64,000 nt of DNA. It comes from Patescibacteria group bacterium (GTDB taxonomy: Bacteria; Patescibacteriota; Minisyncoccia; Phycocordibacterales; Phycocordibacteraceae). The position numbers and the translations under genes were made by a program. Under the pieces are notes generated by a model. The model was not told where the DNA came from. It saw nothing but the letters and a program-made list of their open reading frames with translations, and ran no database searches. Below are positions 3,067 through 64,000 of this stretch, one piece after another. The stretch covers positions 18,266 to 82,265 of the forward strand of contig SCTS01000007.1 in the NCBI GenBank assembly GCA_004322365.1. Reading direction: 5' to 3'. Position 1 is the first letter of the stretch, and every line of letters starts with the position of its first letter.

Positions 3067-3120
3067 ACGGCAGAGCTTCTTTGGGCTGATTACCCTATCC
3101 ACAGGATTTCCACTCCTAAT

Positions 3121-3152
3121 TAGGTGCTAGGTTTTAGGGACTAGGTTCTAGC
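3121..3152. repeat. modular intergenic repeat TAGGTGCTAGGTTTTAGGGACTAGGTTCTAGC
   Basis: Built from the same modules as 4366-4396, in permuted order (AGGTTCTAGGG, ACTAGGTTTTAGG, TGCTAG). Confidence 0.6.
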
Positions 3153-3159
3153 TTTGACA

Positions 3160-3510: not shown

Positions 3511-3568
3511 GCTGGAAGCTGTGATCCCTGCGGATCCGACGAGGCGTCGCCTGACAGCTGGAAGCTTT
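3511..3568. repeat. about 58-bp intergenic element 'A' (AGCTGGAAGCT GTGATCCCTGCGGATC CGACGAGGCGTCG CCTGACAGCTGGAAGCTTT), copy 1 of 2
   Basis: About 85% identical to 6301-6358. Contains two short hairpins (GATCC-CTGC-GGATC and CGACG-AGG-CGTCG) and an internal direct repeat GCTGGAAGCT. Confidence 0.7.
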
Positions 3569-4259: not shown

Positions 4260-4365
4260 AGAGGTAACGTTATACAATAAATAAAATTAATAAACGGCTT
4301 TATTGCCTACTTAAAATGGTAGCACATTGTAGAGGTGCTGGAGGGTGGATGTGGATAGCAAAAGA

Positions 4366-4440
4366 AGGTTCTAGGGACTAGGTTTTAGGTGCTAGCTTTC
4401 GGATTTAAAGCTAGAAGCTAGCACCTGTAACCTGACCTCA
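4366..4440. repeat. modular intergenic repeat (AGGTTCTAGGGACTAGGTTTTAGGTGCTAGC ... AGCTAGAAGCTAGCACCTGTAACCTGACC)
   Basis: Same module vocabulary as 3121-3152 and 18504-18538. Flanks the membrane-protein gene on the side opposite 3121-3152. Confidence 0.6.
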
Positions 4441-5110: not shown

Positions 5111-5198
5111 TATACAGTGCGGAGAACAACGGTGAGTGAATCGAAAAGAGGGAGTGAAAAGATCGGGAGAGCGGGTAAGAAAAAACTAATACATGAAA

Positions 5199-5230
5199 TA
5201 AAAAACGCCCCACTCGGGGCGTTTTTTATT
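5199..5230 (-). terminator. bidirectional terminator after rplL (AACGCCCC-ACTC-GGGGCGTT flanked by A- and T-runs)
   Basis: Hairpin 14 nt downstream of the rplL stop with TTTTTTATTT on the minus strand. Confidence 0.75.
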
Positions 5231-5247
5231 TCAGATTTTAGAAAAAA

Positions 5248-5741: not shown

Positions 5742-6251
5742 CTAAACTTTGATCTTTCCTACTTCAGCAAGTGCTATCGCAAAACGCTGAATAGGAGAAT
5801 TAATAACATTGACGAACATACCTCGAAGTACCGAGACTGGAGGAATAGTAGCGACAGCAACAATTTCTGTTCCTGAGAGATACTTCCCTTCCAAGGCACC
5901 GCCGAGGAATACAAGCTTGCCCTTCAATTTCTTGACGAACGCTTGCAAACTTCTCGCTGGCGCTGTGATGTCGGACTCCACACCCTCTACTTCAGAGAGA
6001 TAGGCAAAAGCGACTTCACCAGTTAATTCTGGCATCTCACCAGAAAAACCTTTCGCATCGAGAGCCTTCTTCAAGAGCGTCTTCTTAACGACGGTGTACT
6101 TCACACCCTCGCCTTTGAGTGCATCTCGAAGTTCGTTTACTTCATGAACTGTCACTCCCCTAAAAGAAACAAAGACGATAGACACTGCTTTCGCGAGTGC
6201 GTCAGATGTTCCTTTCAAGAGTGACTCTTTTTTTGCTCGAGTAATGGCCAT
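5742..6251 (-). CDS. rplJ: 50S ribosomal protein L10
   Basis: 169-aa protein with L10 family features (…FRGVTVHEVNELRDAL…). Lies immediately upstream of rplL on the same strand. Confidence 0.9.
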   Translation of the reverse strand: MAITRAKKESLLKGTSDALAKAVSIVFVSFRGVTVHEVNELRDALKGEGVKYTVVKKTLLKKALDAKGFSGEMPELTGEVAFAYLSEVEGVESDITAPARSLQAFVKKLKGKLVFLGGALEGKYLSGTEIVAVATIPPVSVLRGMFVNVINSPIQRFAIALAEVGKIKV

Positions 6252-6300
6252 ATTGAATAGCTTTCAGCTGCCAGCTGTCGGCTTTCAGCTTTAACTTCCG

Positions 6301-6358
6301 AAAAGCTGAGTGATCCCTGCGGATCCGACGAAGCGTCGCCTAAAGACTGGGAGCTTTA
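6301..6358. repeat. about 58-bp intergenic element 'A', copy 2 (AAAAGCTGAGTGATCCCTGCGGATCCGACGAAGCGTCGCCTAAAGACTGGGAGCTTTA)
   Basis: About 85% identical to 3511-3568. Lies 50 nt upstream of rplJ and is preceded by AGCTTTCAGCT-type heptamer repeats (6253-6300). Confidence 0.7.
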
Positions 6359-6773
6359 TTGGTAATGCACAAATTTAGGAGTTTCGAGGCGGATCGACCG
6401 CACCCTCGACTTCGGTAGGTGGCTTGTGGCCATTGACCCTTTCGGGACCTACTGTCTCCAGTCGTGCTAGAAGCTAGACTACCACAAATCTAGCGATATA
6501 CGCAAACCACCCCCAGAGACAGCCCAATTCAAGCTGATTTTGCCGCTACCCCAAATACAGTAAGAAAGATGAAGCTAATTAAAATTATGACCGAAAAAGC
6601 GAGGAGGAACCGAAAGAATCCGGGGGTAAAAAACTTTTTCATCCCGTTAGAGGCAGGATGCCTCTGGCATCCGTAAATTATGCAAAGCGAGTAAAGATAG
6701 AACCGCAATCATCATTCTATTGTACGATATATTTTTCATAACGCTCAGGCCTCTAACGGGATTCATGTCCCCG

Positions 6774-7710: not shown

Positions 7711-10700
7711 TTAGTGCGAGCGAGTCGCAAACAAGCCACCTGCTGGAAGACCTGAGACACCGTAACCGTTTGTCCAGTCCTGATCTGCACGAACCGCTGT
7801 GGTTGTGGAGTTAGGAGACCAAACGAATACGTTATCCGATGAACTCACACCTGAAGCCGAAGCAATGAGGAGTGGGTTTGCGCCAACTGCAGCTGCAGTT
7901 GATGGGAACGCTGAAGATCCGAGAAGCTTCGTTGTTACCGACGCACCTGTAGCACTACCCGAGATCGAGCCACGGACCTCGAAGTATCGAGTACCGCCTG
8001 CAGGAATCTGGATAGATGTTGCTGTACCAGCTGATGTTGTAACACCAACTACTACATTGCCTGTACCTGGAACGGTTGCATCGTCAGTTGCCTGGAGGTC
8101 ACCGCTCGTGCTGATACCCGAAATTGCTTGCGAGTATGCAGAGTCGCTGAATCCGTAGATCGTGACGTTTGTAACCGAAGCAGTTGTTGTTGCGAGGTTA
8201 AGCGCAAACTGTGTGATGCCAAGGGGACCCTTTGCATCAGCAGTTACCTTGAATCGCATAAGGCGACCATCGGTAAGACCCGTTGTGCCGTTGATTGTTG
8301 AATCAAGAGCGAACGTTGGGAACGACTTCATGATGCGAACACCTGATGAAGCCGATGAACCTGATGGGTAGATAGTACTGCCTGAAGAAGCACCAGTACC
8401 TTCTGAGTTCAAGTAATCAACTGCCAAAAGGTGACCAGAGAATGCAACAGCTTCACCAGTGCCGACATTGTTGAGGTCAGCCTTGATGGTAAGAGTTACA
8501 TCTGTGTTCTTTTGAAGTGAGACTATTGAAGTCAATGTTGAAGTTGCCGAAGCGTTCGAACCTGAGAAGTATGCCTCGCCTACCTTTGTTGCACCATTCC
8601 AAATCGTTGCCTTTACGAGGTCAGACGATGAAGATGAAGCTGTGTTGGTAAGAGTAAGGCCGACTTTCGTCAAGTTGACTGCTTCGTTTGAAGCACGGAA
8701 CTTAAGTGCGCCGACAACTACATCAGTTGAGCCAGCTGAAACGAGCGCGAAGCTTGGGCTTGACGCATCGAGAGCAACTGTAGCAGAACCGGCAGCGACG
8801 GTCATCGTGACTCCAGAGTCAGATGTGTCAGTGCCTGTGATTGTTGTACCTGAAGTTGCACCTGTGAAGGTGTAGGCAGAAGCTGCACCTGCATCCCATG
8901 CCCATGTACCATTGTTCGTTGCCGAACCAGAGACATTACATTTGATACCGATAGTCTTAACTGTACCTTTTGCAACAGTAACAGGGTTATCAAGTGTGAA
9001 TGTCTGAGTTGCACCTGTTGAACCTGAAGGATTTACAACATTCGAACCTGTCGAAAGCTGTGTTGTACCGTCGTACGCTGCACAAGCTGTGAGTTCAGTC
9101 ACCGCTGCGCTACCACCGAAGGTGAGCGTAGTAGGAATTGAAGAGAATCGTACATCTTCACCTGACTGCGTTGCATCGTACTGGAAGTTTACAAACAAAG
9201 TTTGTGAGCCACCAGCAGTGATGTTCTGCGAAGCAGGAGATGTAGCGAGACCAACTGCAACTGCACCTGCCTTCACGGTCATGGTGTTCATAGTGAATGT
9301 ACCATTCGATGAAAGTGAGATTGTGTTGCCAGTTGTTTCACCCTTGACATTGGTCCATCCAGACGAAGGAACTGTGGTGACAATATATGTACCACCGTTT
9401 CCGATGTTTGAAGCAACCTTGCCACGGAGTGTGTAGACACCTCTTCCAACCTTGTAGGTGATTGAGTCAGTGAAGGTAGCTGTTTGAGTCGTTGCTGATG
9501 CATATACAGCATCAACAGGACCTGCAACTACTGCACCGTTCTGATCAACAATCGTAAGATTGGTGAGGAGGCCAGTACCTGAACCAGTTGTTGAAGCGAT
9601 TGTGAAGACAGTTGACTGAACAGTCATTGCCTCACCCTTCAAGTCAACTACATAACCGCCGAGAGGCTGATTAGGAAGGTTGATTGCGATGTTCTGCGCA
9701 GGAACTTCGTTTGCCTTGCCGATCGATGTAATCGATGCGCCAGAGACAGTTACCTGAGTAGCGTATACGAACGGAGTTCCGCTCGTAATGGTGATCGTAC
9801 CGCGTGATGAAGGAACAGCAGATGAACCTACTGCTGGCGAAACGCCGTAGCCGTAAGTCTCACCTGTTGCGTAGATATCTGTAGTCTTGTCAACATCGAA
9901 GACAACAGTGCGGTTAGCCGCACCTGCGCCAATGATGTCGTACTGAACATAGAGATCAACTTGATTTCCCTTTGGAATAACTACACCTGAACCGAGGTTC
10001 GTGTTGTAGTATTTTCCGTCTGAAGAAACAGTCGCTGGGTATGCTGTTCCGTTAACAACTGTCATTACATTTGCAATGTCAGTAGCTGATACGGAGCCAG
10101 TTTGATTCCAACGGATGCTCTTGAGGCGGAGATCCTCAGCAGATCCCGCTGTAAGGCGAAGACCTGTTGCCTTGAATGCGGTTGTACCAATTTCCTTCGT
10201 TTGGTTCGAGTTTGAAGCGAACGCATTTGAAGTATTCAAGGTAATTGAACCAACAGTCAAAGTTGCATTGTTTGTGTTATGAGCGCCGACGATTGGAAGT
10301 GAGCCAGAAACGGTTGCTGAAGTGTTAACTGCAACAAGCGCGAGTCCTGGAGCTTCACCTGTGTACGAAGTGAGTGACGAAGCCATGTTTCCTGCAATGA
10401 GGAAAGTCTTTGTCGTTCCCTTTGCAACAGTGAAGGTACCACCGACAACTGTCTGGTGATTTGAATTCAATGTCTTTGCGATACCAAGCTGCAAGCCAGT
10501 TGACTCATCGATGAGGACGATACCAGCAAAAGCTGCATCCTGACCGAGTCCGTCTTTCTGGACCGTAACTCCGTTCACCACTACATCGCCATCAGCGCCT
10601 GCAGTGAGTGTGAAGCGAGTAAACGGAACGCGCGATGCACCTTGTGGTGAAAGCGAGTTTGCTGGTTGTGTACCTGCTGCGACAGCAAGGCCAGTACCTG

Positions 10701-11208
10701 TTGGTGTTGTCACTACTGGAGTGGAACCACCTGAAGTCTTGCCGAATGCTGCGCGAGAGATCGCACCGAAGTAGCCAGCTGCAGGAGAAACTCCTGCTGC
10801 CTTCTGCCATGCGATAACTGCAGTCACAGTCTGGGAACCGAAGTAGCCAGTTGCGCCTGCTGGAACCGAGTAGCCAGCTGCAATGAGTGCCTTCTGAAGA
10901 CAAGTTACATCGTCACCTTTCGAGCCAACCGTGAGGTTTCTCGTGAAGGTACAACCGCCTGTCATTGAGCCGCCAGTCGAGCCCCCTGTTGGAGCTGTCC
11001 CATTGAGAGACGCACTAACGTTCGCGATAGTCGAAGCGTCAGCACCGAATGACTGCAAGAGAGAAACGATAGCTGAGATTTGCGAACTTGTGAGCGTTGC
11101 GGCTTCTGCCTTAGACGCTGTGAAAGTGAATGCAAATCCAGCTACCAACGAAACTGCAACGACGATCGCCGCAACTTTCGTGAGAGAACTGTTTACAATT
11201 GAAGTCAT
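7711..11208 (-). CDS. large secreted/cell-surface protein: N-terminal anchor, peptidoglycan-binding (PG_binding_1-like) domain, then a Thr/Ser/Gly/Val-rich beta-repeat region of about 1000 aa
   Basis: 1165-aa ORF. Signal/anchor AAIVVAVSLVAGFAF. PG-binding motif …DDVTCLQKALIAAGY…GYFGSQTVTAVIAWQKAAG. Long low-complexity T/S/G/A/V-rich stretch. Confidence 0.8.
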   Translation of the reverse strand: MTSIVNSSLTKVAAIVVAVSLVAGFAFTFTASKAEAATLTSSQISAIVSLLQSFGADASTIANVSASLNGTAPTGGSTGGSMTGGCTFTRNLTVGSKGDDVTCLQKALIAAGYSVPAGATGYFGSQTVTAVIAWQKAAGVSPAAGYFGAISRAAFGKTSGGSTPVVTTPTGTGLAVAAGTQPANSLSPQGASRVPFTRFTLTAGADGDVVVNGVTVQKDGLGQDAAFAGIVLIDESTGLQLGIAKTLNSNHQTVVGGTFTVAKGTTKTFLIAGNMASSLTSYTGEAPGLALVAVNTSATVSGSLPIVGAHNTNNATLTVGSITLNTSNAFASNSNQTKEIGTTAFKATGLRLTAGSAEDLRLKSIRWNQTGSVSATDIANVMTVVNGTAYPATVSSDGKYYNTNLGSGVVIPKGNQVDLYVQYDIIGAGAANRTVVFDVDKTTDIYATGETYGYGVSPAVGSSAVPSSRGTITITSGTPFVYATQVTVSGASITSIGKANEVPAQNIAINLPNQPLGGYVVDLKGEAMTVQSTVFTIASTTGSGTGLLTNLTIVDQNGAVVAGPVDAVYASATTQTATFTDSITYKVGRGVYTLRGKVASNIGNGGTYIVTTVPSSGWTNVKGETTGNTISLSSNGTFTMNTMTVKAGAVAVGLATSPASQNITAGGSQTLFVNFQYDATQSGEDVRFSSIPTTLTFGGSAAVTELTACAAYDGTTQLSTGSNVVNPSGSTGATQTFTLDNPVTVAKGTVKTIGIKCNVSGSATNNGTWAWDAGAASAYTFTGATSGTTITGTDTSDSGVTMTVAAGSATVALDASSPSFALVSAGSTDVVVGALKFRASNEAVNLTKVGLTLTNTASSSSSDLVKATIWNGATKVGEAYFSGSNASATSTLTSIVSLQKNTDVTLTIKADLNNVGTGEAVAFSGHLLAVDYLNSEGTGASSGSTIYPSGSSASSGVRIMKSFPTFALDSTINGTTGLTDGRLMRFKVTADAKGPLGITQFALNLATTTASVTNVTIYGFSDSAYSQAISGISTSGDLQATDDATVPGTGNVVVGVTTSAGTATSIQIPAGGTRYFEVRGSISGSATGASVTTKLLGSSAFPSTAAAVGANPLLIASASGVSSSDNVFVWSPNSTTTAVRADQDWTNGYGVSGLPAGGLFATRSH

Positions 11209-12013
11209 AGATACAATAATAATTTTCTAATTTTTGACGCCACACTCATTCACGCTTGAATTAAATAAAACGCGAGAATCAGTGGTGCGGGTGCGTGGAC
11301 GCAAATCATTCGTTCGACCGAATAATTCACGACCCGCCGCATACCTGTTAATAAGTACGACTAAGAGTCGTCCTTTCTACCGTCGCTCGTTCGGAAGAAA
11401 AATAAAATTTCTCTTCCCTCACTCGCTAGGTAGTAAGCATAACGAGATGTTATACCTCCTGTCATTTTCTGTTCGCGAAAGAAATAGAATTTCTTTCTAC
11501 TCACTTGAACGACAACAAAGAACAACTAATTTTCTGTCTTCCGTATTGAATCTAGAAAAATTTTCTAAACTTTTTTCAGAAGACAGCACAACTAAAGTCC
11601 ATCAACCCGTTCGCATTATTTCTAATGCGAACGGGACCAATGGTAAGAAGAAAAATGGTCGTGCGGGATATAGCCGTGGTGGGGTAGCGCTTCCTTACAG
11701 TGATGTACGCATGCTTCATCTATTACAACGAAACCAAGGCGCACGCTTGAGATGTATTCCGGATATGAAAGATGTCAAAGTTCTGTTCGACCGGAAGCGC
11801 GCCACACAGTGCGCAACCGAACACCCAGTATGGGAGTTCACCTATTATACGCGCCCATTCCGCTCTACATATTAGAACAGAGGGTTTATATATGTGGACA
11901 ACATAGACGACAAAAATCCCGTTTCCGGGTTTATTGCTGTCTATAGGATCGTGCCATCCACATGAGAGATACTATCTGAAATAAGGCTTAAAAGCAAGCC
12001 AAACATCTAGAGG

Positions 12014-12086
12014 CTTTCAGGTGTCAGGTTTCAGGTTTCAGGTTTCAGGTTCTAAGAAAGTTCTCTAAACGCTGACCACTAAATCC
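12014..12086. repeat. heptamer tandem repeat (CTTTCAGGTGTCAGG(TTTCAGG)x3 TTCTAAG) followed by the TTCTCTAAACGCTGACCACTAAATCC box
   Basis: Direct tandem TTTCAGG units. The box recurs at 37007-37042 and 63820-63846. Confidence 0.7.
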
Positions 12087-12089
12087 TCT

Positions 12090-12830
12090 CTATGCCTTCC
12101 TGTACGTACTCCATCTACGCTCCCCTTCCTTTATAAGGGCGCCTGACTGAACAAGAGACAGAAGCTCTCGTTGCACTGTCTTTTCGCTACAACCAACGAC
12201 TGATGCGGTAATGTCCTTTATAGAAAGTTTGTCTTTATTTTTGAAAACAGCCAGAACCAATTCCCTTCTATCGGACTGTCTTTTTTGAGGGGCGATTCTC
12301 AGAGTATTGTTTTTTATTCTGAGAGAATCTAAAGGACTTTTTGCAACATGTCCTATAGAAAAACTATTCGGAGTCTCTAGGTCAGAGAGAGCTTCTTCTA
12401 TCCGACCAACATGTTCAGAAATCTTCTCTTGATTGTCTCGGACAAAAGAAGCGAGCGAGGCATATTCATCTCCTATAAGTTTTGCATTCATCGCCGATAT
12501 CAACCCCCCAGCTTTTGCAGTCTCAAGTATTGCACCTATCTCCATGCAACGAGCACCAAAAGACTCTATGCTAGCTCCGTGAAGTTTTGCCTGATCTGTT
12601 GATCGATTAAGAAGGTCAAGTGCACATGAACGGAGACGCCCTCGTGCAGGTTCATCAGGAGACAGGAAACCAGTAATTACATATAGGGCCGAAGCGAGTC
12701 TCTCTGACTTTTTAACAACAAAAGCATGATGTCCGTTAGACAAAAGATGTCCCAAATGGAAAGAAGCGCTCACACTAAGAGGTTTCTTATTTGTCTGATT
12801 ACCTTGGTTGTCTTTTATACTATCGGACAT
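12090..12830 (-). CDS. hypothetical protein with a C-terminal winged-helix DNA-binding domain; ORF track extends to 12923
   Basis: C-terminus …SIKDITASVVGCSEKTVQRELLSLVQSGALIKEGERRWSTY resembles a wHTH. ATG at 12830 (MSDSIKD...) is the preferred start. Confidence 0.6.
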   Translation of the reverse strand: MSDSIKDNQGNQTNKKPLSVSASFHLGHLLSNGHHAFVVKKSERLASALYVITGFLSPDEPARGRLRSCALDLLNRSTDQAKLHGASIESFGARCMEIGAILETAKAGGLISAMNAKLIGDEYASLASFVRDNQEKISEHVGRIEEALSDLETPNSFSIGHVAKSPLDSLRIKNNTLRIAPQKRQSDRRELVLAVFKNKDKLSIKDITASVVGCSEKTVQRELLSLVQSGALIKEGERRWSTYRKA

Positions 12831-13130
12831 ATATAAAACGCTATCGGTCTTTAATTTCAAGGTCAGTTTACCTCTAAGACCTTGTCCTTTGCAAGGATCC
12901 GCCCATCTAAACCCCGGGACCATCTACGGAAGAAACCTCAAATTAATCGGGGCAGAAGCGAATTACATACAGAAATATAGACGCATATGTCTAGTGTAAA
13001 TATAGGAGGTTTGCATAATAAAATTTTTAAAAATAGTCTGAAGCGGTGAGTATTTAATCTCTTTATTATTCTTCGTTACTCCTGCATTTTTTTGCATAGA
13101 GTCCGTATGAGACCATGCTAAAATCCATCA

Positions 13131-17163: not shown

Positions 17164-17793
17164 TTATTCTACCGAACCCATACTTTCTCGCAATACTGCT
17201 TTTGCACGATGCACCCTCGTTTTTACCGCAGGAACACTCGTGCCCAATTTCTCTGCTATCTCCGCATACGGCAAGCCTTCAATGAAAGCGAGTTTGAGTA
17301 TTTCAGCAACATGCTCTGGAACTTTAGAAAGCCCCTTCTCTATTACTTCCCTTGCGTACTCTTGGTGACCCTCTTTCGCGTGAATTGATGGATCGGCAAG
17401 AGATTCATAGTGTTCGGAAGTTAATTCGGCAAAACTTTCTCTACCACGAGCAATTTTACGATAGTGAGTTCGCGCAACATTCATAAGAATAGTAAGTGAC
17501 CATGCACGAAATGAACCCGACTCTCCCTTAAAGCGCGGAGCAAAACGGTACACACGAATGAACGCTTCTTGCACTACATCTTCAGCGGCATCCCGACTAC
17601 CAACGATTCCCTGAACTCTGCTCAAAAATTGCGACTGATAGCGAGCAACAAGAATTTCAAATGCGCTCGGGTTTGACAGCGAACGTGCAAGAAGTGCCTC
17701 ATCGGGCATACTCATAAGTTCATCCATACTGCGTATACTAAACCCTATAGGGAGAGTTTGAGCAATAGCTGTTGCTTTTGGTATAGTACTCAT
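17164..17793 (-). CDS. ECF (sigma-70 family, RpoE-like) sigma factor; probable real start at 17727 (MDELMSMPDEALLARS...)
   Basis: Region 2 (…VVQEAFIRVYR…) and region 4 HTH (…LPYAEIAEKLGTSVPAVKTRVHRAK…) motifs. Confidence 0.85.
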   Translation of the reverse strand: MSTIPKATAIAQTLPIGFSIRSMDELMSMPDEALLARSLSNPSAFEILVARYQSQFLSRVQGIVGSRDAAEDVVQEAFIRVYRFAPRFKGESGSFRAWSLTILMNVARTHYRKIARGRESFAELTSEHYESLADPSIHAKEGHQEYAREVIEKGLSKVPEHVAEILKLAFIEGLPYAEIAEKLGTSVPAVKTRVHRAKAVLRESMGSVE

Positions 17794-17832
17794 TGTTAGA
17801 CGCTTAGGCGCCTTTATTAATACTCATTAGGC

Positions 17833-17871
17833 AGGTTCTAGGTGACAGGTTCTAGGTTCTAGGTTCTAGGG
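17833..17871. repeat. heptamer tandem repeat AGGTTCTAGGTGACAGG(TTCTAGG)x3 G
   Basis: Lies in the divergent region between the ECF sigma gene and efp. Confidence 0.7.
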
Positions 17872-17924
17872 ACAGCAAACTACAATCTATACTTCTGCAT
17901 ACTACCCGCTATAATCTAACTCCC

Positions 17925-18500: not shown

Positions 18501-18503
18501 GGA

Positions 18504-18538
18504 AGGTTCTAGGTGCTAGCTTCTAGGGACTAAATTTT
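18504..18538. repeat. modular repeat AGGTTCTAGGTGCTAGCTTCTAGGGACTAAATTTT
   Basis: Same modules as 4366-4396. Confidence 0.6.
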
Positions 18539-18598
18539 AATCCAAGAGATTAGCTATAAAAAAAATCCCTCTGACGAGGGATTTTTTAGTTTGGATGC

Positions 18599-18781
18599 TT
18601 ATTGTGCGATGTATGGGAGAAGTCCCATGAAGCGAGCGTGCTTGATAGCTTTCTCAATCTTGCGCTGATGGCTTGCTGGCATACTTGTTCGGCGAGCGCC
18701 TTGGATACGAGCATGTGGCGTAATAAACCCTTTAAGGTATTGGGTGTTCTTGTAATCAACGTATTTTGGAAGTGAACTCAT
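18599..18781 (-). CDS. rpsR: 30S ribosomal protein S18
   Basis: 60 aa: …YLKGFITPHARIQGARRTSMPASHQRKIEKAIKHARFMGLLPY matches the S18 core. Confidence 0.9.
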   Translation of the reverse strand: MSSLPKYVDYKNTQYLKGFITPHARIQGARRTSMPASHQRKIEKAIKHARFMGLLPYIAQ

Positions 18782-18796
18782 ATTTTTATTATTTTG

Positions 18797-18838
18797 GATT
18801 TAAAGCTGAAAGCTGGCACCTGAAACCTGAAAGCTATT
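18797..18838. repeat. AGCTGAA/ACCTGAA heptamer repeats (AAAGCTGAAAGCTGGCACCTGAAACCTGAAAGCT)
   Basis: Lies between the ssb stop and the rpsR start. Confidence 0.6.
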
Positions 18839-18840
18839 AA

Positions 18841-19293
18841 TTAAAATGGAATATCGTCAGGGCTTATTTCTTCGGCAGGATACTCGATATCGGGACCTTT
18901 GTCACTCCCCGCCTTACCAGGCTTCATTGGAGCACCATCACCGCGCACCTCGTCGCTTCCCCCACCACCAGTCTTTGAGCCAAACTGAACGCGCTCTGCA
19001 ACGATTTCTGTTCGGTACTGCTTTGCACCATCTTTGTCCCAAGAACGAGTCTGAAGTCGGCCTTCAACGAGAACCTGCTGACCCTTTTTCAAGTACTGAG
19101 CACAGGTTTCTGCCTGACGACCGAAAACAACGATGTTATGAAATTCTGTCGCCTCTTTCTTTTCACCATTCTGATCTTTCCATGTGCGATTTGTTGCAAC
19201 ACCGAATGAAGAAACATTCGCACCAGATGGGAGCGCCTTTAACTCTGGATCACGAGTGAGGTTTCCTGCGATGAAAACTTTATTGAGATACAT
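18841..19293 (-). CDS. ssb: single-stranded DNA-binding protein
   Basis: 150 aa. OB-fold N-terminus (…NKVFIAGNLTRDPELK…), Gly-rich linker and acidic tail …DDIPF. Confidence 0.95.
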   Translation of the reverse strand: MYLNKVFIAGNLTRDPELKALPSGANVSSFGVATNRTWKDQNGEKKEATEFHNIVVFGRQAETCAQYLKKGQQVLVEGRLQTRSWDKDGAKQYRTEIVAERVQFGSKTGGGGSDEVRGDGAPMKPGKAGSDKGPDIEYPAEEISPDDIPF

Positions 19294-19910: not shown

Positions 19911-19953
19911 TGAGGCAACGGGCAGGTAGCTTACAGGTTCCAGCTGTCAGGTT

Positions 19954-20766
19954 TCAGCTTTTTGGAACAAACATCTTGAGGGCGTTTTGGACGGTAGCCT
20001 CTCTGGCCGTCTCCTCTGAAATGCCCCGAATCGAGGCAATAGCCCCAACTACGTACTTCACATATAAAGGCTCATTTCTTCTCCCCCTAAAAGGGTTCGG
20101 GGTAGCATACGGAGCATCAGTTTCAGTCATGAGCATCTCGAGTGGTGCAAATTTCACTACATCGTCGTATTCACGAGCAAAGGTAAGAACTCCGGTGAAC
20201 GATGTCGTGAAGCCTATGGTGTAAAAACGCCTCGCTATATCAACGGTGCCCACAAAAAAATGAATATTCCCTCGGAGTTTTTCACCTGCCTCTCTTTTTT
20301 TGGACTCCAACATTGCAAGCATGTCGATGTAGGTATCAACGGTACCTCGTGAAGGCCTGCCGTGAATCATTAATGGTTTGTCGTATTTAATTGCAAAATC
20401 CACGTGCTTCTCAAACTCACACATCTGACGCTTCTTCGCAATTGCTATATCGCCTGTAATTCTAAAATAATCTAAACCACACTCCCCTACCCCAACAACT
20501 TTCGGATTCAGAATAAGTGATTTATATTCAGCCTCTGAAAAAGTTTCTGACTCTGTGTCATTGGGATGAAGACCAATCGTTGAAAAGAATCCTTCTTTCC
20601 CTTCCCCAAACTTCACTGAATCTTCTGAAGTCGATTTATTAACTCCTACAGTAATAGTCCACACCGATTCATCCCGCATTCTCTGAAGGACTTCCTCAAG
20701 ATCTTGATCGTAGTCCTTAAAAGTTACGTGGGAGTGAATGTCAAAGTATTTTGGTTTCATATACAC
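19954..20766 (-). CDS. tatD: TatD-family metal-dependent DNase/hydrolase
   Basis: FDIHSH…, …GECGLDY…, MIHGR… motifs. Confidence 0.9.
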   Translation of the reverse strand: MYMKPKYFDIHSHVTFKDYDQDLEEVLQRMRDESVWTITVGVNKSTSEDSVKFGEGKEGFFSTIGLHPNDTESETFSEAEYKSLILNPKVVGVGECGLDYFRITGDIAIAKKRQMCEFEKHVDFAIKYDKPLMIHGRPSRGTVDTYIDMLAMLESKKREAGEKLRGNIHFFVGTVDIARRFYTIGFTTSFTGVLTFAREYDDVVKFAPLEMLMTETDAPYATPNPFRGRRNEPLYVKYVVGAIASIRGISEETAREATVQNALKMFVPKS

Positions 20767-24647: not shown

Positions 24648-24685
24648 TGAATGATTGTATCCTCCCTGAAAGCTGAAAGCTATAT

Positions 24686-26539: not shown

Positions 26540-26551
26540 ACTGAACAGCTT

Positions 26552-26654
26552 AGCAGGTTATAGGTTATAGGTTCCAGTTTTTAATAGGGACAAAAAGAGA
26601 TTTCTTCGCTTTTCTATTCCCTATAACCTAAAACCTCGCACCTAGAACCTGACC
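26552..26654. repeat. inverted array of heptamer repeats (AGGTTATAGGTTATAGGTTCC ... central TAGGGA/TCCCTA hairpin ... CCTATAACCTAAAACCTCGCACCTAGAACCTGACC)
   Basis: The left and right arms are reverse-complementary heptamer arrays. Lies between the recO stop and the surface-protein gene start. Confidence 0.65.
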
Positions 26655-27239
26655 TCAAAGTCCACTCTCAGAAATAGCTTCGTTAATAAGGCGAACAAGT
26701 GTATTGCGAGATTCACGCACTGCTTTCAAAGTCGGCATATCGTACGAAATATCTAAAAATAACTTCATTATGGGATCCTCCCGCACATACCCTAACGCTG
26801 CGAGTACCCGAAGCACCGCAACGCATTCCGCTTCAAGTACATACTCCTCATCGATGTTCGGAAGAATGCGAAAGAATCCAAACAGTGCACTAAAAAGATA
26901 TGGATCACTGCCTTCTCCCCGAATAAACTGCCTAACTATTGTGATAACACGGGCCGTAACTTCTTGAGCTTTTGTATTACCTGAAAGCGCAAAGTGAGAA
27001 TTCTCAGTTTTTGTAGCGCCGATAACACGCCACACATCACGACCTTTCACCAACACAAAAACGCCCGTTGTCCCAACCTGTAGGTGCGGGCGAAGCTTTG
27101 ATCGCTCTTCACGGGCACTTTTAGCGAGAGCAGAAACAAGTCCTAACGAGTCCGTATATATAGAAATACGCACACTACCCTCTCCGGCTGAGCGCCTAGC
27201 AACTATAATCCCTCGAGCTGTTACTTCACGAACGGACAT
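26655..27239 (-). CDS. recO: DNA repair protein RecO
   Basis: 194 aa: an N-terminal OB fold (…ARGIIVARRSAGEGSVRISIYT…) and a C-terminal helical domain. Confidence 0.75.
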   Translation of the reverse strand: MSVREVTARGIIVARRSAGEGSVRISIYTDSLGLVSALAKSAREERSKLRPHLQVGTTGVFVLVKGRDVWRVIGATKTENSHFALSGNTKAQEVTARVITIVRQFIRGEGSDPYLFSALFGFFRILPNIDEEYVLEAECVAVLRVLAALGYVREDPIMKLFLDISYDMPTLKAVRESRNTLVRLINEAISESGL

Positions 27240-30200
27240 TGAACCTAAATGTCATTCCATCAAACACCAATTCACTAGTGCCACCGCCAATCTCATACGC
27301 TGACAACTTAGCGGTGGTACTGAGTACCTCCCAGTGTTTCTCCAAAAACCTTTCAACTTCTGCATCAGAGGAAACAACGAGTATTGCGGGGTCGTGCGGT
27401 GTAAGACCCGCGCCCTTACGAAGTTCTTGTATAAAGCGTAGGACCTCTCGTACATTTCCCTCTTCCTTCAGAGCATCAGAAATACTTGTGTCGAGGAGTA
27501 CCTCTCCTTTCGCCACAGACTCATCAATCACCACCTCCTTCACATTTAACTCATCTTTAATAAGTTCTAAAAGTTCTCCCTTTCCTGAAAGCTCCGAGCT
27601 GAAAGCTGAAAGTTTCTGAAGTGGTTGTCTCACCTTTATATCCGCCCTCTGCCGAGCTTCTAATCCCAATGAAACAATGCGTCGCACCTCCTCCATGTCG
27701 TGAAGCAGTTTCTCATCAATCGAATCTATATGAGGCCAAACACACAAGTGCACACTTAGGGGTGCGCCACTCTTTTTAACTTTTTGATATGCGTACTCAG
27801 CAGTAAATGGAATGAATGGCGCCGACACTTTTGTAAATTCTTCGATAATCGTTCGGAATGTTCGAAGTGCGTCCCCTGTATTTGAACCACCCTCTTTTAA
27901 ACGATCCCGCGAACGCCTCAGATACCATGTTGAAAAATCTTCAACAAACGAAAGTAAGGGGCGTGTCGCCTTATCAAGCTCATACGATTCCATTCCTGCG
28001 GTGACCTCTACAACCGTTTGATTCAAGCACGCAACTATCCACCTATCAAGCACATGCTCAGATGAACGAGCCTTCAGGTCATTCACAGTGAGGTCAGCGT
28101 AGAGCTCGTAGAAAGAAAGCACATTGAGGAATCTGCCAATAAGTTTTGAGGCAATTTCCCCCACCCCTTTTTCAGAGAAGTTCAAATCTTCCGCACGCAT
28201 CAACGGCGAAGCTAGGAGGTAATAACGGATAGCATCAGCGCCATATTTCTCTAATACGGTGACTGGATCAGGGTAATTTTTCAAACGTTTCGACATCTTT
28301 TGCCCATCTTCTGCCAAAACAATACCGTTCACAATTACATTCTTATAGGTTGCTCTGCCAAAAAGTCCGACACCTAAAACGAGGAGCGAATAAAACCAAC
28401 CCCTTGTTTGGTCTAATCCCTCAGCAATAAAATCCGCTGGGTAGCCACGAGATTTCTTGAGCCACCCCGGCTTCGGGTCGAACCTGTCTTTGTTTTCGAA
28501 TGGATAATGATTCTGAGCATACGACATTGAGCCCGACTCAAACCAGCAATCAAAAACATCATGTACACGCTCCAACCTTGTACCATCGGTGTCTATAAGC
28601 ACCACGTCATCGATGTATGGACGGTGATAATCGAGTTCATAATTTTTATTATGAGGGAGAGGAATGAAAGGAAGACTAACTATCTCGGCTGGCTTGAGCA
28701 TCGCGTGGTCGGCAAGAACAGATAGTGCTTCTTTTGCAGTGCTTCCTTTTGAAACTGCCACGAGTGCAGCTACTGGCCAGCCATGAGAAACAAACAATAT
28801 ATTTTTTCCTGCATATTTGTGTTCACATTCATAGAGAAGCGCTCCAACGCGACGACGCATATCATTAATGCTTTCGCCTTCTTCAGGACCTTTTTCAAAA
28901 AGTGGTGCTATTTCCTTAAAATGCTCTGCCCACTCACTGTCGGGACGACCATTGAAGACACCGTGATTGTATTCATTCAAACGTGAATCAGTCGATACAG
29001 CCGACACTTCAAGACCAAGAGTTTCTCGTGCTATCTCAGCAGTTTGTGTTGCCCTCAGAAGCTCCGAATGGATAATGATATCTATGTGTACTCCTAAATT
29101 TTGAGTAGATTTTTTTGCCTCCGCCTTTCCTTTTTCAGTAAGAGAGACGCCATCATCAGGCTTATAACTTATGACTTTTTTAACATTCTTCTCTGACTCT
29201 CCGTGACGCATTGCAAAATATGTATTGCCTGATTTTTTCGTGTATGACTTTAGTTCATCCAGTGAGCCAATAAAAACATTCTCTTTAGCCTTGTGGTTAC
29301 GCCACACGGGAATTGGTGCACCCCAATACCGAGCACGTGAAATTGCCCAATCCCGGGCATTGAGAAGCCAATTTCCGAACCTCTTCTCCCCTACTTCTTT
29401 GGGCACCCAATTAATGTTTTTATTTTCCGCTACAAGTTTGTTTTTAAACTTCGTGACTTCCACAAACCACGACGACGAAGCGTAATTTAACAACGGAGTA
29501 TCACACCGCCAACAATGCGGATACGAGTGTATTATTTTTTCTTTAGCAAAGAGCAATCCTTTTCCTGCAAGATATTTAATGACCGCAACATCTGTGGATT
29601 GCGAATCGTCTTTCGGTTTCGCCTGAAGTCCTTTGAAATCTGAAACGACATCGACAAAAAACCCATCCTTATCGACGTGATGCACTATCGGAATCCCTTC
29701 TTTTTGTGCGAGCTCTAAGTCTTCTGCACCAAACGCAGGAGCAAGATGCACTAACCCTGTTCCACTATCCATCGTCACATACGGAGCGTGATACACCTTC
29801 CATGCTTTTTCTTTGCCTTTTATATTGTGATCAGCAAAATACGAAAACGGAGGCTTGTATGATTTACCAACAAGTTCACTCCCAAGAAATTCTTTTTCTA
29901 CTTCATAGTCAACTTTAATTACTTCCAATCTGTCTTTAGCGAGAATGTATTTTTCATTTCCTGAGACAATTTTTACATAGGTCATATCTTTATGAACTGC
30001 AGCAGCCATGTTGCCAGGCAAGGTCCACGGCGTTGTTGTCCACGCAAGAAGAAAAGTTCCGGGTTCATCAACAAGCTCAAGTTTTGCGGTGACAGAAATA
30101 TCGGTAATGTCTTTGTATCCTTGCGCTACTTCAAAGTTAGAGAGCGTGGTGCCACAACGAGGGCACAAATGCATCGCTTTAAATCCTTCATATACCAATC

Positions 30201-30714
30201 CCTTTTTATGAAGATCATTAAATGCCCACCATACGCTTTCGGTGTAGGTGGCATCCATCGTCCTATAGTCATTCTCCATATCTACCCATCTACCGAAACG
30301 AGGAATGATAGCTTTCCAGTCATCCGAATAACGGAGGACTGCTTTGCGAGCCGCTTCATTAAATGTCGCAACCCCTAGAGTTTCAATATCTCGTTTCGTT
30401 GCAAGTCCGAGCTCTTTCTCTATCTGATTCTCTAGAGGTAATCCATGGCAATCCCAACCCCAACGGCGTGGTACATGGTAGCCCTGCATCGTTTTGTAAC
30501 GCGGGATAGCATCTTTAATGGTGCCCGCGAGAATGTGACCGTAATGTGGCAAACCTGTGGCAAATGGAGGACCATCATAAAAAACAAACTCTCCCTTTGG
30601 AGCCTCTTTGGAAAGGGTTTTTTCAAAAATCTCGTTTTTTTGCCAAAAAGCTAGGATTTCTTCCTCACGCTTGGCAGGCTCGCTTTTAGTATCTGCATCC
30701 ATAAACTTCATCAC
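27226..30714 (-). CDS. ileS: isoleucine--tRNA ligase (type 2) with an embedded histidine-phosphatase (PGAM-like) domain
   Basis: 1162 aa. HIGH region (PHYGHILAG), WCISR-like AISRARYWGAPIP, KMSKRL. Residues about 496-683 (YFAMRHGESEKN … FVSHGWPV) form a complete RHG histidine-phosphatase domain inserted before DCWFESGS. Confidence 0.9.
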   Translation of the reverse strand: MMKFMDADTKSEPAKREEEILAFWQKNEIFEKTLSKEAPKGEFVFYDGPPFATGLPHYGHILAGTIKDAIPRYKTMQGYHVPRRWGWDCHGLPLENQIEKELGLATKRDIETLGVATFNEAARKAVLRYSDDWKAIIPRFGRWVDMENDYRTMDATYTESVWWAFNDLHKKGLVYEGFKAMHLCPRCGTTLSNFEVAQGYKDITDISVTAKLELVDEPGTFLLAWTTTPWTLPGNMAAAVHKDMTYVKIVSGNEKYILAKDRLEVIKVDYEVEKEFLGSELVGKSYKPPFSYFADHNIKGKEKAWKVYHAPYVTMDSGTGLVHLAPAFGAEDLELAQKEGIPIVHHVDKDGFFVDVVSDFKGLQAKPKDDSQSTDVAVIKYLAGKGLLFAKEKIIHSYPHCWRCDTPLLNYASSSWFVEVTKFKNKLVAENKNINWVPKEVGEKRFGNWLLNARDWAISRARYWGAPIPVWRNHKAKENVFIGSLDELKSYTKKSGNTYFAMRHGESEKNVKKVISYKPDDGVSLTEKGKAEAKKSTQNLGVHIDIIIHSELLRATQTAEIARETLGLEVSAVSTDSRLNEYNHGVFNGRPDSEWAEHFKEIAPLFEKGPEEGESINDMRRRVGALLYECEHKYAGKNILFVSHGWPVAALVAVSKGSTAKEALSVLADHAMLKPAEIVSLPFIPLPHNKNYELDYHRPYIDDVVLIDTDGTRLERVHDVFDCWFESGSMSYAQNHYPFENKDRFDPKPGWLKKSRGYPADFIAEGLDQTRGWFYSLLVLGVGLFGRATYKNVIVNGIVLAEDGQKMSKRLKNYPDPVTVLEKYGADAIRYYLLASPLMRAEDLNFSEKGVGEIASKLIGRFLNVLSFYELYADLTVNDLKARSSEHVLDRWIVACLNQTVVEVTAGMESYELDKATRPLLSFVEDFSTWYLRRSRDRLKEGGSNTGDALRTFRTIIEEFTKVSAPFIPFTAEYAYQKVKKSGAPLSVHLCVWPHIDSIDEKLLHDMEEVRRIVSLGLEARQRADIKVRQPLQKLSAFSSELSGKGELLELIKDELNVKEVVIDESVAKGEVLLDTSISDALKEEGNVREVLRFIQELRKGAGLTPHDPAILVVSSDAEVERFLEKHWEVLSTTAKLSAYEIGGGTSELVFDGMTFRFNVRS

Positions 30715-36137: not shown

Positions 36138-36176
36138 CCCCTAAACGCTATACGCTATAGGCTATACGCTCTCTAT
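36138..36176. repeat. CTAAACGCTATACGCTATAGGCTATACGCT repeat in the tmk/thyA divergent region
   Basis: Tandem GCTATAC/CTAAACGCT units, related to 37007-37042. Confidence 0.6.
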
Positions 36177-37006: not shown

Positions 37007-37042
37007 TTGCTGGTTTTCTCTAAACGCTATACTCTAAACACT
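37007..37042. repeat. TTCTCTAAACGCTATACTCTAAACACTAACCACTAC box
   Basis: Shares TTCTCTAAAC…CCACTAA with 12061-12086 and 63820-63846. Confidence 0.6.
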
Positions 37043-37053
37043 AACCACTACTT

Positions 37054-41445: not shown

Positions 41446-41476
41446 CAAAAAATCCCAGCTTTTGCTGGGATTTTTT
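41446..41476 (-). terminator. bidirectional terminator AAAAAATCCCAGC-TTTT-GCTGGGATTTTTT
   Basis: 9-bp stem with an A-run and a T-run. Followed by the (CCTAGAA)x3 repeat at 41477-41502. Confidence 0.8.
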
Positions 41477-41504
41477 CCTAAAACCTAGAACCTAGAACCT
41501 AGTC

Positions 41505-62854: not shown

Positions 62855-63778
62855 ATGAACTTCTTTAAAAAATACGCGCCATTCCTCGTTCTTTTTGCAG
62901 CAATGTTATGGGCAACAGATGCCCCCTTTCGCCTCCACTTAACAGAAGGGCTTTCCAGTAACTTTATTGTTCTTGGAGAGCATTTCATTGCAATCCTATT
63001 TGTCTTGCCAATATTACTTCTCAACTGGAGAGAACTAAAAAAACTGAAACTAAAGGAATGGCTCGCTGTTCTTTTCATTGCTATCGGCGGAAGTGCTCTT
63101 GCTTCAGTTGCCTTTACGCAAGCATTTCATTACCTCAACCCATCAGTAGCTATTCTTCTACAGAAACTTCAACCATTTATGGTAATCGGCTTAGCGGCAG
63201 TTGTCCTTAAAGAAACTCTTGGTCGCAGGTTTTGGCTTTTCGCCGTTGTATCGATTATAGGAGCGTACCTAATCTCATTCCCAAACTTCATTCCTCAAAC
63301 CTATCCAGGGGAGACATTTAATGCAAACCTGCTTGGTGTAGGACTTGCACTCATCGCTGCATTCTTCTGGGGTGCATCGACGGTGTTTGGAAAATTGGTA
63401 CTCAACAAAACAAACTTCAAGGTAATGACGGGATTACGATTTTCCGTTGCGTTTATCTTTCTTATTTTCTTGAACCTATTTCAGCAATCATTCCCCGATT
63501 GGAGCACCGTCACCTCTACTGACTACCTCTTCATCGGTATCATCGGTATCACCTCAGGTGTAGTATCTCTCTTCATTTACTACAAAGGTCTCGAAAACAC
63601 GAGTGCATCTGTCGCAACAATGGCAGAGCTCGGATTCCCTCTTGGAGCGGTCGTTGTGAATTGGATATTTTTGGGCGCCATATTACTCCCTATGCAAATT
63701 TTTGGCATGGCAATTCTGCTCTTGGGTGTATACGGGCTCGCAAAATATAACGGCGAGGTTAAAGGGGTTAGCGTTTAG
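62855..63778 (+). CDS. EamA/DMT-family transporter (10 TM)
   Basis: Two EamA-like halves. 307 aa. Confidence 0.8.
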   Translation: MNFFKKYAPFLVLFAAMLWATDAPFRLHLTEGLSSNFIVLGEHFIAILFVLPILLLNWRELKKLKLKEWLAVLFIAIGGSALASVAFTQAFHYLNPSVAILLQKLQPFMVIGLAAVVLKETLGRRFWLFAVVSIIGAYLISFPNFIPQTYPGETFNANLLGVGLALIAAFFWGASTVFGKLVLNKTNFKVMTGLRFSVAFIFLIFLNLFQQSFPDWSTVTSTDYLFIGIIGITSGVVSLFIYYKGLENTSASVATMAELGFPLGAVVVNWIFLGAILLPMQIFGMAILLLGVYGLAKYNGEVKGVSV

Positions 63779-63780
63779 GA

Positions 63781-63853
63781 TTTAGGGAGCTCGAAGCTAG
63801 GGGGCTTCTGAATTTATTTCTCTAAACACTGGCCACTAACCCCTCGCCCCTAG
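63781..63853. repeat. modular repeat block TTTAGGGAGCTCGAAGCTAGGGGGCTTCTG … TTCTCTAAACACTGGCCACTAACC
   Basis: Shares the CTAGGG and TTCTCTAAAC…CCACTAAC modules with other intergenic sites. Confidence 0.6.
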
Positions 63854-64000
63854 TTTTTCTATTTCCTCAATTGATTTATTGCGGTGTATGATTTCGTCAT
63901 TTCTCACTGACCTGAAAAAATCATATTGGTTCGAAGCTTCCCTGCCGTACCATTCAAGATATTTGCTTGCCATCGGTTTCTTTTTCAATTCTTCCGCATT
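63850..64000 (-). CDS. possible 3' end of a minus-strand gene continuing beyond the window (…SIEEIEKLGARG*), or a short ORF starting at 63973
   Basis: Open reading frame to the window edge. Charged helical sequence. Confidence 0.25.

Follow-up and report, generated by a model that had tools for sequence, protein, structure and literature searches.

Strictly polar arrays of a degenerate heptamer at gene edges in a Patescibacteria genome

The intergenic spacers of a 64,000-nucleotide stretch from a Patescibacteria group bacterium (contig SCTS01000007.1, positions 18,266 to 82,265; the whole stretch is hereafter called the window, and coordinates refer to it) carry short tandem arrays of seven-nucleotide units, one of which, at 17833–17871, had been flagged in a reading of the bare letters (hereafter the sequence-only reading). 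These arrays belong to one degenerate heptamer family with a strict polarity relative to the neighboring genes, and arrays that converge across a spacer mostly form hairpins whose two arms change together. Between related species the units are rewritten rapidly, with position, polarity and a central AG dinucleotide retained. The explanation that we favor, tentatively and with slightly less than even confidence, is that the arrays serve at the transcript level as gene-boundary cassettes, which are generated and rewritten by slippage and template switching.

The heptamer arrays are real and lie far above chance. On the plus strand, positions 17833–17871 read AGGTTCT AGGTGAC AGGTTCT AGGTTCT AGGTTCT AGGG, and heptamer runs are present at all 14 of the sites that the sequence-only reading had listed. 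Tandem Repeats Finder reports period 7 in 14 of its 38 rows for the window. An autocorrelation scan that is blind to the sequence of the unit returns 13 arrays of period 7, compared to 0 to 3 for the other periods between 4 and 13 and 0.44 in block shuffles, with period 14 (the double of 7) giving 10. Eleven of these 13 arrays are non-coding, or 12 of 13 if the thyA start is placed at 36177, in a window that is 86% coding or RNA according to longest-ORF gene calls (open reading frames, ORFs, with a cutoff of 80 aa). Chains of four AG or CT dinucleotides at a spacing of 7 nt occur in 35 cases, 28 of which fall in non-coding DNA (14% of the window), and spacings of 5, 6, 8, and 9 nt yield only 0 to 5. 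The pattern (YAGSKKN)x3, allowing at most one mismatch, matches 33 times vs. 0.16 expected from dinucleotide-preserving shuffles, and none of 100 shuffles reaches 33.

After phasing on the most conserved columns, the unit is a single degenerate heptamer, 5'-N-Y-A-G-S-K-K-3'. The A and the G are present in 97–98% of units, position 2 is a pyrimidine in 90%, position 5 is G or C in 85%, position 6 is G or T in 94%, and position 7 is almost never C; the frequent units are CTAGGTT, TCAGGTT, CTAGCTT, CTAGGTG, CTAGGGA, and ATAGCGT. The small vocabulary in both orientations that had been described at the outset is therefore present, with the correction that its six separate words collapse into one family with the unit NYAGSKK and its reverse complement: CCTAGAA, CTAAACGCT, and AGCTGAA are the NYAGSKK unit as seen from the opposite strand. 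It is also clear that the AG core is no artifact of phasing, since of the 53 arrays that were found by autocorrelation alone, without reference to AG, 42 have AG/CT as the dinucleotide conserved in phase, and the next class reaches at most 18.

A tandem position-weight scan delineates 21 arrays of 3–7 units each. Twenty of them lie in 13 of the approximately 40 spacers and one lies within the coding sequence of IleRS (27589–27609), so that the intergenic character claimed by the sequence-only reading stands for 20 of 21 arrays and fails for one, and its description of the arrays as pervasive does not survive: 41.5–63.7 kb of the window contains none, despite 17 spacers of at least 30 nt there, several of them 300–600 nt long. 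The comparison of coding with intergenic DNA that had been proposed as a check came out as anticipated, the words being 3.4- to more than 100-fold denser in non-coding DNA (CCTAGAA occurs 10 times in non-coding and 0 times in coding DNA, and AGGTTCT is enriched 13.6-fold). CRISPR had been dismissed, and rightly, as the units are 7 nt long and contiguous, with no spacers between them and nothing resembling a constant 24–48 nt repeat with unique spacers.

The AG strand of an array is directed from the edge of the neighboring gene toward the interior of the spacer in every same-spacer pair of the window, so paired arrays are convergent. All six pairs (3120/3548, 4364/4408, 12010/12062, 17831/17899, 26553/26611, and 63754/63819) are plus-then-minus, two of the six pair spacers being defined with the small S18 ORF described below and with a minus-strand gene beyond the window end, where the sequence was taken from a 2.6-kb contig found by exact-protein look-up. 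In a hand count of the spacer half occupied by each array, all 10 minus arrays fall in the right half, and 6 of the 8 plus arrays fall in the left half (Fisher p ~0.0015). Every pair in the related loci L001–L005 is likewise plus-then-minus, and the same polarity is seen in the distant lineages L062, L025, L042, and L044, as well as in a different heptamer dialect in L002/L005. Among 120 heterogeneous metagenome loci, which were picked only for the presence of an AGGTT array and of which none is homologous to the window, neighboring arrays on opposite strands converge in 20 cases and diverge in 4. As separate observations from this set, the contigs L169 (66% GC), L185 (42%), and L177 (48%, with 12 arrays) use the same CTAGGTT/CTAGGGG/CTAGGGA/TTAGCTG units, and convergent pairs at L169 3267–3353 and 7159–7239 and at L185 4333–4429 begin at the stop codon of the upstream gene.

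Relative to the genes, this polarity produces two sense-strand types. On the sense strand, arrays past a stop codon have AG-type (G/T-rich) sequence and lie within 0–5 nt of the stop (EF-P, SSB, RecO, SIMPL, DUF11, and ORFs 4438, 12090, 3570, and 62855). Arrays before a start codon are CT-type (C/A-rich and G-poor) and lie 2–16 nt from the start (L10, EF-P, thyA, dcd, DUF11, and S6), with no tetramer resembling a Shine-Dalgarno (SD) sequence. In the clade as a whole, 20 of 168 starts have CT at period 7 upstream (0–3 for other periods) and 27 of 172 stops have AG at period 7 downstream (1–4 for other periods), and in the distant loci L025, L042, and L044 a CT-type array of different units also precedes EF-P. 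The placement at boundaries reported by the sequence-only reading thus holds for the edges of ORFs, typically 0–16 nt from a stop or start codon; the ends of transcription units, which it had named, are not supported. Its further remark that arrays often abut terminators or divergent promoters applies to some of them, for example next to the terminator at 18556–18588 and in the divergent spacer 17794–17924.

Close pairs of arrays in tandem-gene and convergent-gene spacers usually have arms that are specific complements of each other, and fold into long imperfect hairpins with approximately 20–40 paired bases. The computed folds have free energies of −27.1 kcal/mol (z −3.5) for 4360–4440, −41.2 kcal/mol (z −5.2) for 26548–26660, and −41.4 kcal/mol (z −2.8) for 63750–63856. 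The pair 12010/12062 forms a weak hairpin in the window (z −0.7 / −2.0) and a strong one at the orthologous site in L002–L004 (z −3.5 to −7.9). Short tandem-gene spacers are filled by the hairpin, which runs from 0–5 nt past the stop to approximately 2–16 nt before the next start. Orthologous spacers elsewhere fold equally well or better with other units in both arms (z −3 to −8); in the RecO-DUF11 spacer, for instance, the window has AGGTT units, L002 has AGCTT, L003 has AGCGT, and L004 has AGTGG. Cognate arms pair with a mean of −23.3 kcal/mol vs. −18.7 for non-cognate arms (p = 0.02), and 9 of 17 cognate pairs rank 0–2 among 17 partners, all nine of these belonging to spacers of the tandem or convergent type. 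As the vocabulary is common to all arrays, pairing is fairly good between whichever left and right arms are combined.

The clade data consist of the 64-kb window and five orthologous stretches of 12–20 kb. The EF-P gene search retrieves metagenome-assembled genomes (MAGs) of Paceibacterota / Parcubacteria / Patescibacteria, in which the EF-P protein is 99% identical to that of the window in L001–L003, 97% in L004, 87% in L005, and 80% in L006. Gene order is kept in these relatives, with a nucleotide identity of 87–95% in L001–L003 and approximately 70–80% in L004–L006. In five related species (L001–L005), the same spacers hold arrays and the polarity is kept, so that the proposed comparison of orthologous spacers does not refute the observation. 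The suggestion that the family might be genome-specific is not supported, as the family is common to this clade and the same units recur in unrelated metagenome contigs. Between the window and L001–L003, the coding flanks are 87–92% identical and the arrays 43–59%, with the spacer edge, the polarity, and the AG register kept; at 26553–26580 all four AG columns are identical in three species, and positions 3, 4, and 7 never are. The core vocabulary of AGGTT, AGCTT, AGGTG, AGGGT, AGCGT, and AGGGA is common to all six genomes in differing proportions. A period-7 scan gives a density of 2.4–5.8 arrays per 10 kb in L001–L005 and none in L006. Relatives also have a second heptamer dialect: at the divergent spacer orthologous to 12924–13130, units of CAAGATT/CAAGAAA with the partner GAATCTT/TTGGCAT form a convergent pair at both edges (L002 4975–5143, L005 3804–3949, and L001 483–681). 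In a stretch of approximately 35 nt within IleRS, relatives have a weak ACAGTGA/ATAGTGA array where the window has TCAGCTT-type units, and the length is unchanged. Arrays are sporadic among 74 other Paceibacterota loci, of which L025, L044, L057, and L062 carry them with different units.

A turnover that is very fast relative to the flanks is what would be anticipated if the arrays were functionless by-products, that is, if slippage-prone heptamers seeded in weakly selected spacers, were homogenized by slippage and quasi-palindrome correction, and decayed by point mutation. Presence/absence polymorphism and a patchy distribution also speak for this explanation, and the rewriting of the IleRS array at unchanged length indicates that the process acts whatever the function. 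Heptanucleotides are, according to Mrazek (2007), the commonest long simple-sequence repeats (LSSRs) in many bacteria, with polymerase slippage as a proposed cause. Neutral slippage does not, however, predict the strict arm order and the AG invariance across independent arrays, the vocabulary common to different species, or the persistence of arrays at the same spacer edges across lineages approximately 25% apart in coding DNA. The better pairing of cognate arms is not predicted either, though template switching could yield it. We therefore consider it doubtful that the arrays are by-products only, while leaving that explanation an appreciable weight.

The hairpins and the inverted arrangement of their arms suggest a comparison to mobile elements. 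Repetitive extragenic palindromic sequences (REPs) are copies of a constant 20–40 nt palindrome mobilized by the REP-associated tyrosine transposase (RAYT). The paired arrays could, by analogy, be miniature mobile elements (REP/REPIN-like, or similar to MITEs, the miniature inverted-repeat transposable elements) with terminal inverted repeats built of heptamers. They are intergenic and hairpin-forming, often lie just past gene ends, and keep their inverted arm arrangement regardless of the orientation of the flanking genes, and REPINs are also inverted REP doublets (PMC3116915). Beyond the heptamer vocabulary the copies share nothing constant, in contrast to a palindrome. They have a periodicity of 7 nt with permuted heptamer order, and each site has its own loop sequence separating the arms. 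The arrays occupy orthologous positions in relatives (orthologous spacers in five species, with differing interiors) instead of scattered insertion sites, no target-site duplications are evident (as judged by eye only), and neither a RAYT (Y1 transposase) nor any other transposase gene was found among the window ORFs, almost all of which were covered by Pfam scans. The REP-like label of the sequence-only reading accordingly describes the behavior of the arrays, which are intergenic and hairpin-forming, and not their construction, for which a constant palindrome and a transposase in the window are lacking. A mobile origin is largely refuted and we regard it as very improbable.

The gene-boundary cassette model seems a more reasonable description of these data. 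Replication slippage together with template switching between the two arms would give rise to arrays and rewrite them constantly, a mechanism already put forward for heptanucleotide repeats of other bacteria, which would explain whole-unit turnover, the loss of arrays as blocks, and the joint change of arms. Retention would then follow from the use of the arrays by the transcript as a gene-boundary cassette, in which the hairpin may insulate, end, process, or stabilize the upstream message, and the G-poor, SD-free CT tract may leave the following start free of structure, the genome being for the most part SD-poor and apparently leaderless.

A number of observations weigh against this model. 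It leaves the fixed AG and the fixed arm order unaccounted for, which hints at an additional reader of the sequence. Many arrays are solitary, and some stand beside divergent promoters, with arms that do not complement each other: in the divergent sigma/EF-P spacer of the window, L001, and L002 the arms show no specific pairing (−9 to −11 kcal/mol; z +1.1 in the window). No U tract was found at the array hairpins, which do not have the form of an intrinsic terminator (a GC-rich hairpin followed directly by a U tract), and canonical terminators stand beside arrays (18556–18588), so the arrays are not simply terminators; of the terminator-like matches in 2.7–20.7 kb, none coincides with an array. 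The arrays are also dispensable, as is seen from their near absence in L006 and in 41.5–63.7 kb of the window, from the SSB-S18 array (18803..18844), which is missing as one block in L002/L003, and from the spacer 12924–13130, which has no array in the window and arrays in relatives. Orthologous loci, moreover, are not independent observations, and the distances of arrays to start codons are approximate given that gene starts are longest-ORF calls. The role at the RNA level is inferred from sequence.

The invariance of the AG every 7 nt favors some sequence reader, and binding arrays for a nucleoid or regulatory protein, as suggested by the sequence-only reading, are possible. Stated more specifically, the arrays would be a platform to which a multimeric factor binds in trans, recognizing YAG (or CTR) at every 7-nt step. 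In a double-stranded DNA version, the platform would be similar to the adjoining heptad operators on which a ribbon-helix-helix dimer (omega of pSM19035) binds cooperatively; in an RNA version, the parallel would be HutP, which acts on three NAG triplets within a terminator's 5' arm and thereby governs whether the hairpin forms. The polarity would come from protein-protein geometry, or from the bound arm having to be transcribed first. A register of exactly 7 nt and a strict polarity are as expected for this explanation. So are a nearly invariant AG, with other positions varying within arrays, between spacers, and between species, and a restricted vocabulary that is kept across species approximately 25% different in coding DNA. 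The presence of arrays near promoters in divergent spacers with no predicted hairpin would likewise be accommodated. Binding of a protein does not, however, require complementarity between arms, and close relatives differ by gains and losses of arrays. Contigs of 42 and 66% GC use the same units with the same polarity, which speaks against a protein confined to one lineage, unless such a factor is widespread. Among the approximately 60 window ORFs there is no candidate of the HutP, ribbon-helix-helix, CsrA, or a comparable type, and Pfam scans of almost all window ORFs revealed no candidate binding protein. On balance a binding platform seems unlikely to be the principal explanation, with enough in its favor to keep it under consideration.

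The two regulators are instructive as models of the spacing. The omega repressor of pSM19035 is a ribbon-helix-helix dimer whose WATCACW heptads occur in direct or inverted orientation, and the HutP site consists of three NAG triplets with 4-nt gaps, within the 5' arm of a hairpin/terminator. The arrays share with both a recognition spacing of once per 7 nt, a likeness by description, from sequence alone; the NAG-N4-NAG-N4-NAG pattern of HutP sites is contained in the arrays by construction and is a resemblance only. Both proteins differ from what would be required here in being single-operon regulators instead of features of dozens of spacers, and the omega consensus is different. Two WATCACW variants that were tried (AATCACA and TATCACT) have 0 tandem occurrences in the window, no ribbon-helix-helix ORF is present in the window, and HutP (PF09021) is absent from the window ORFs. 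A more far-reaching and, in our estimate, improbable variant is that YAG every 7 nt is a code for a ring- or filament-forming protein on the first-transcribed, G/U-rich arm, which decides whether the hairpin forms. If true, this would cover the fixed AG, the 7-nt register, the common vocabulary, and the occurrence of the AG arm first on either strand, and the code would be a genome-wide HutP-like anti-termination/processing switch that sets gene boundaries in a leaderless, SD-poor genome of the candidate phyla radiation (CPR).

Intergenic heptanucleotide repeats have been known for decades in cyanobacteria, Xanthomonas, Burkholderia, and Beggiatoaceae with no settled function. The arrays fall into the class of bacterial intergenic heptanucleotide simple-sequence repeats (LSSRs, similar to the short tandemly repeated repetitive sequences, STRRs), since they are tandem 7-nt units beyond chance at dispersed, mainly non-coding loci. 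The heptanucleotide consensus units of the cyanobacterial STRRs (Calothrix/Anabaena) are CCCCAGT, TTGGTCA, and CAACAGT. As in the window, these are tandem heptanucleotides at many dispersed, mainly non-coding loci and are lineage-specific; unlike them, the window host is not a cyanobacterium, and the STRR1-3 units have 0 tandem occurrences in the window. No tandem occurrence of the ctx heptamer TTTTGAT is found in the window either.

The closest likeness in arrangement is to the intergenic heptameric repeats GGGAATC of Xanthomonas and GGGGAYT of Nostoc PCC 7120 (Rehm et al., 2015; PMC4692102). Xanthomonas has hundreds of intergenic GGGAATC arrays, with 70–75 convergent array pairs per genome that are able to form stem-loops (PMC4692102). 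Tandem heptamers, intergenic excess, and dispersal are common to these systems and the window, and the convergent arm order is as in Xanthomonas. The differences are that their unit is near-constant, with a G-tract and a proposed G-quadruplex, whereas the unit of the window is degenerate around a fixed AG, and that the host phylum here belongs to the CPR. GGGAATC and GGGGAYT have 0 tandem copies in the window, in which no G3+N1-7 x4 motif occurs on either strand.

Start-proximal arrays have a parallel in the TAACTGA units that are directly repeated in marine Beggiatoaceae, some Cyanobacteria, and Bacteroidetes (MacGregor, 2015; PMC4679880). These occur in 2–6 copies, are mostly intergenic, and point at start codons with no Shine-Dalgarno sequence, often ending a few nucleotides away, and inverted pairs are rare among them (1/170; PMC4679880). 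The CT-type arrays (CTGAAAG, CTGAAAC, CTAGAAC, CTAAACG) are similarly start-proximal and SD-free, and in rotation resemble CTGATAA. The placement near starts with no ribosome-binding site is shared by the CT-type arrays only, and the AG-type stop-side arrays have no counterpart in that system. In contrast to the one fixed TAACTGA unit, the units of the window are degenerate, half of the arrays lie past stops on the other strand, and paired arrays form hairpins. The TAACTGA unit is found in the window as 6 single copies and 0 tandem copies.

Our literature text searches returned no report of such heptamer repeats in Patescibacteria/CPR. What is new here is the strict edge-to-spacer grammar of polarity, the orthologous persistence of arrays with turnover of their units, and the addition of a CPR lineage. 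The comparative data expose rules that any general explanation has to obey (the fixed AG, the fixed arm order, and the co-varying arms), and the convergent arm order common to Xanthomonas, the metagenome contigs, and the window suggests a general mechanism instead of a local curiosity. Small, gene-dense, and apparently leaderless genomes with only a few hundred spacers provide tractable ground for the question. The arrays also have practical consequences, as they coincide with alignment breaks between close relatives and may affect the calling of gene starts in CPR MAGs.

It is also important to consider simpler functions, several of which were tried and rejected. Three-frame stop codons as the purpose of the arrays do not fit, as the approximately 54% of units that carry a stop on the CT strand are what is expected from independent base frequencies, and a hand calculation from unit counts gives none on the sense strand for TCAG-type arrays. 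Tandem −10 promoter mimics did not hold up as an overall explanation, given that the critical A position is G in approximately one third of the units and that stop-side arrays would drive antisense transcription; the −10 of this genome resembles GCTAnnnT at −14 to −7, and some terminal units coincide with it (thyA, DUF11, EF-P). Formation of G-quadruplexes was rejected for want of a G4 motif in the window, and SD-like ribosome binding by AGGTG-type units would concern only a minority of units and is not compatible with AGCTT-type units. Primase (CTG/CTA) start sites were set aside as arrays occur on both strands irrespective of the direction of replication, and DNA uptake sequences as tandem degenerate heptamers are unlike the known single 9–12-mers.

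The individual arrays of the window are as follows, with the strand being that of the AG. The spacer upstream of the 23S rRNA 5' end holds the array at 3120..3154 (+; TTAGGTG CTAGGTT TTAGGGA CTAGGTT CTAGCTT), the left-hand member of a widely separated pair; its partner at 3548..3568 (−) is a weak 3-unit array (score 12.7) located 1 nt past the stop of ORF 3570–4277(−). The convergent pair formed by 4364..4405 (+) and 4408..4435 (−), the latter 2 nt past the stop of ORF 4438–5058(−), has a cognate duplex of −33.1 kcal/mol. In a convergent-gene spacer, the left arm at 12010..12058 (+) contains (TCAGGTT)x5 and the right arm at 12062..12089 (−) adjoins the stop of ORF 12090–12923(−). The flagged array, at its full extent of 17831..17872 (+; GCAGGTT CTAGGTG ACAGGTT CTAGGTT CTAGGTT CTAGGGA), lies 37 nt upstream of the start of the ECF sigma factor (17164–17793, −) in the divergent spacer shared with EF-P. 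It faces a degenerate right-hand array at 17899..17919 (−; score 11.3), which is CT-type on the plus strand, lies 5 nt upstream of the EF-P start, and includes a TATAAT box; the orthologous sites carry clearer arrays in L001, L002, L004, L005, and L006, and none was scored on this side in L003. The hairpin of the RecO-DUF11 spacer has its left arm at 26553..26580 (+), 13 nt from the start of the DUF11 gene, and its right arm at 26611..26659 (−), overlapping the RecO stop. The last pair consists of 63754..63788 (+), which overlaps the stop of ORF 62855–63778(+) and has a cognate duplex of −31.2 kcal/mol (the best of 17 partners), and 63819..63853 (−), where the next gene is on the minus strand and the spacer is hence of the convergent-gene type.

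Stop-side arrays outside of pairs include 18502..18536 (+), which lies 1 nt past the EF-P stop with the canonical terminator at 18556–18588 next to it, 18803..18844 (−), which adjoins the SSB stop and ends 21 nt before the S18 start, and 41475..41502 (−), in which (CTAGGTT)x3 + TTAGGAA begin 2 nt past the stop of the SIMPL gene; all three are AG-type on the sense strand. A 3-unit array at 24663..24683 (−) starts 2 nt past the stop of a DUF11 gene, and its last unit merges into the SD-like GGAGG of the next gene. Start-side arrays that are CT-type on the sense strand are the solitary array of AGCTT/AGCTG units at 6257..6291 (+), 5 nt upstream of the L10 start (5742–6251, −), the array at 19926..19967 (+), which fills the TatD-S6 spacer and lies 15 nt upstream of the called S6 start, and that at 37017..37051 (−) in the thyA-dcd spacer, 2 nt before the dcd start. 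The array at 36138..36172 (−) fills the tmk/thyA divergent spacer, is CT-type on the plus strand, and ends 4 nt before the thyA start at 36177. The coding array in IleRS at 27589..27609 (−; TCAGCTT TCAGCTC GGAGCTT) is in frame and situated in a linker. Apart from the array, the IleRS ORF (27226–30714, −) has a His_Phos_1 domain at residues 501–662, within the synthetase, which is an unusual insertion or fusion.

The genes of the window are of a housekeeping nature and include 23S rRNA, L10, L11, NusG, EF-P, S6-SSB-S18, RecA, RecO, and FtsK, several aminoacyl-tRNA synthetases, thyA/dcd/tmk/DHFR, and PilM/N. At gathering threshold, Rfam returned only 23S rRNA and tRNAs over the window, and the GC skew is monotonic across it. 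The genome is apparently largely leaderless and SD-poor, judging from its sequence: an SD-like tetramer precedes only about 10 of 64 ORFs, and TANNNT, often as GCTAnnnT, peaks with its first T at −12/−13 from the start codon in 19 of 64 ORFs. TANNNT near the start is the leaderless signature of the “group C” class of GeneMarkS-2. The G-poor CT-type arrays are likewise free of SD sequences. Examples are the TATAAT at 17909–17914, before EF-P, and positions 61516, 43881, and 42674.

A 60-aa ORF at 18599–18781 (−), which is below the 80-aa cutoff, is ribosomal protein S18 and completes the usual rpsF-ssb-rpsR operon; its recognition altered the classification of the spacers nearby. Intrinsic terminators of canonical bidirectional form (A tract, GC stem, T tract) were identified at two places, 18556–18588 and 5194–5233, the former being located between the EF-P array and the S18 stop and kept in L002/L003. 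In L001 (~6130–6680) and L002 (~10660–10910), the EF-P/S18 spacer contains additional DNA, as much as several hundred nt, which the window and L003 lack. Elsewhere in the window, an ORF similar to LAGLIDADG homing endonucleases (49120–49779, −) adjoins tRNA-Leu and tRNA-His, and two ORFs of the F420-0:gamma-glutamyl ligase family are found within the 64 kb, at 38791–39531 (−) and 53943–54650 (+).

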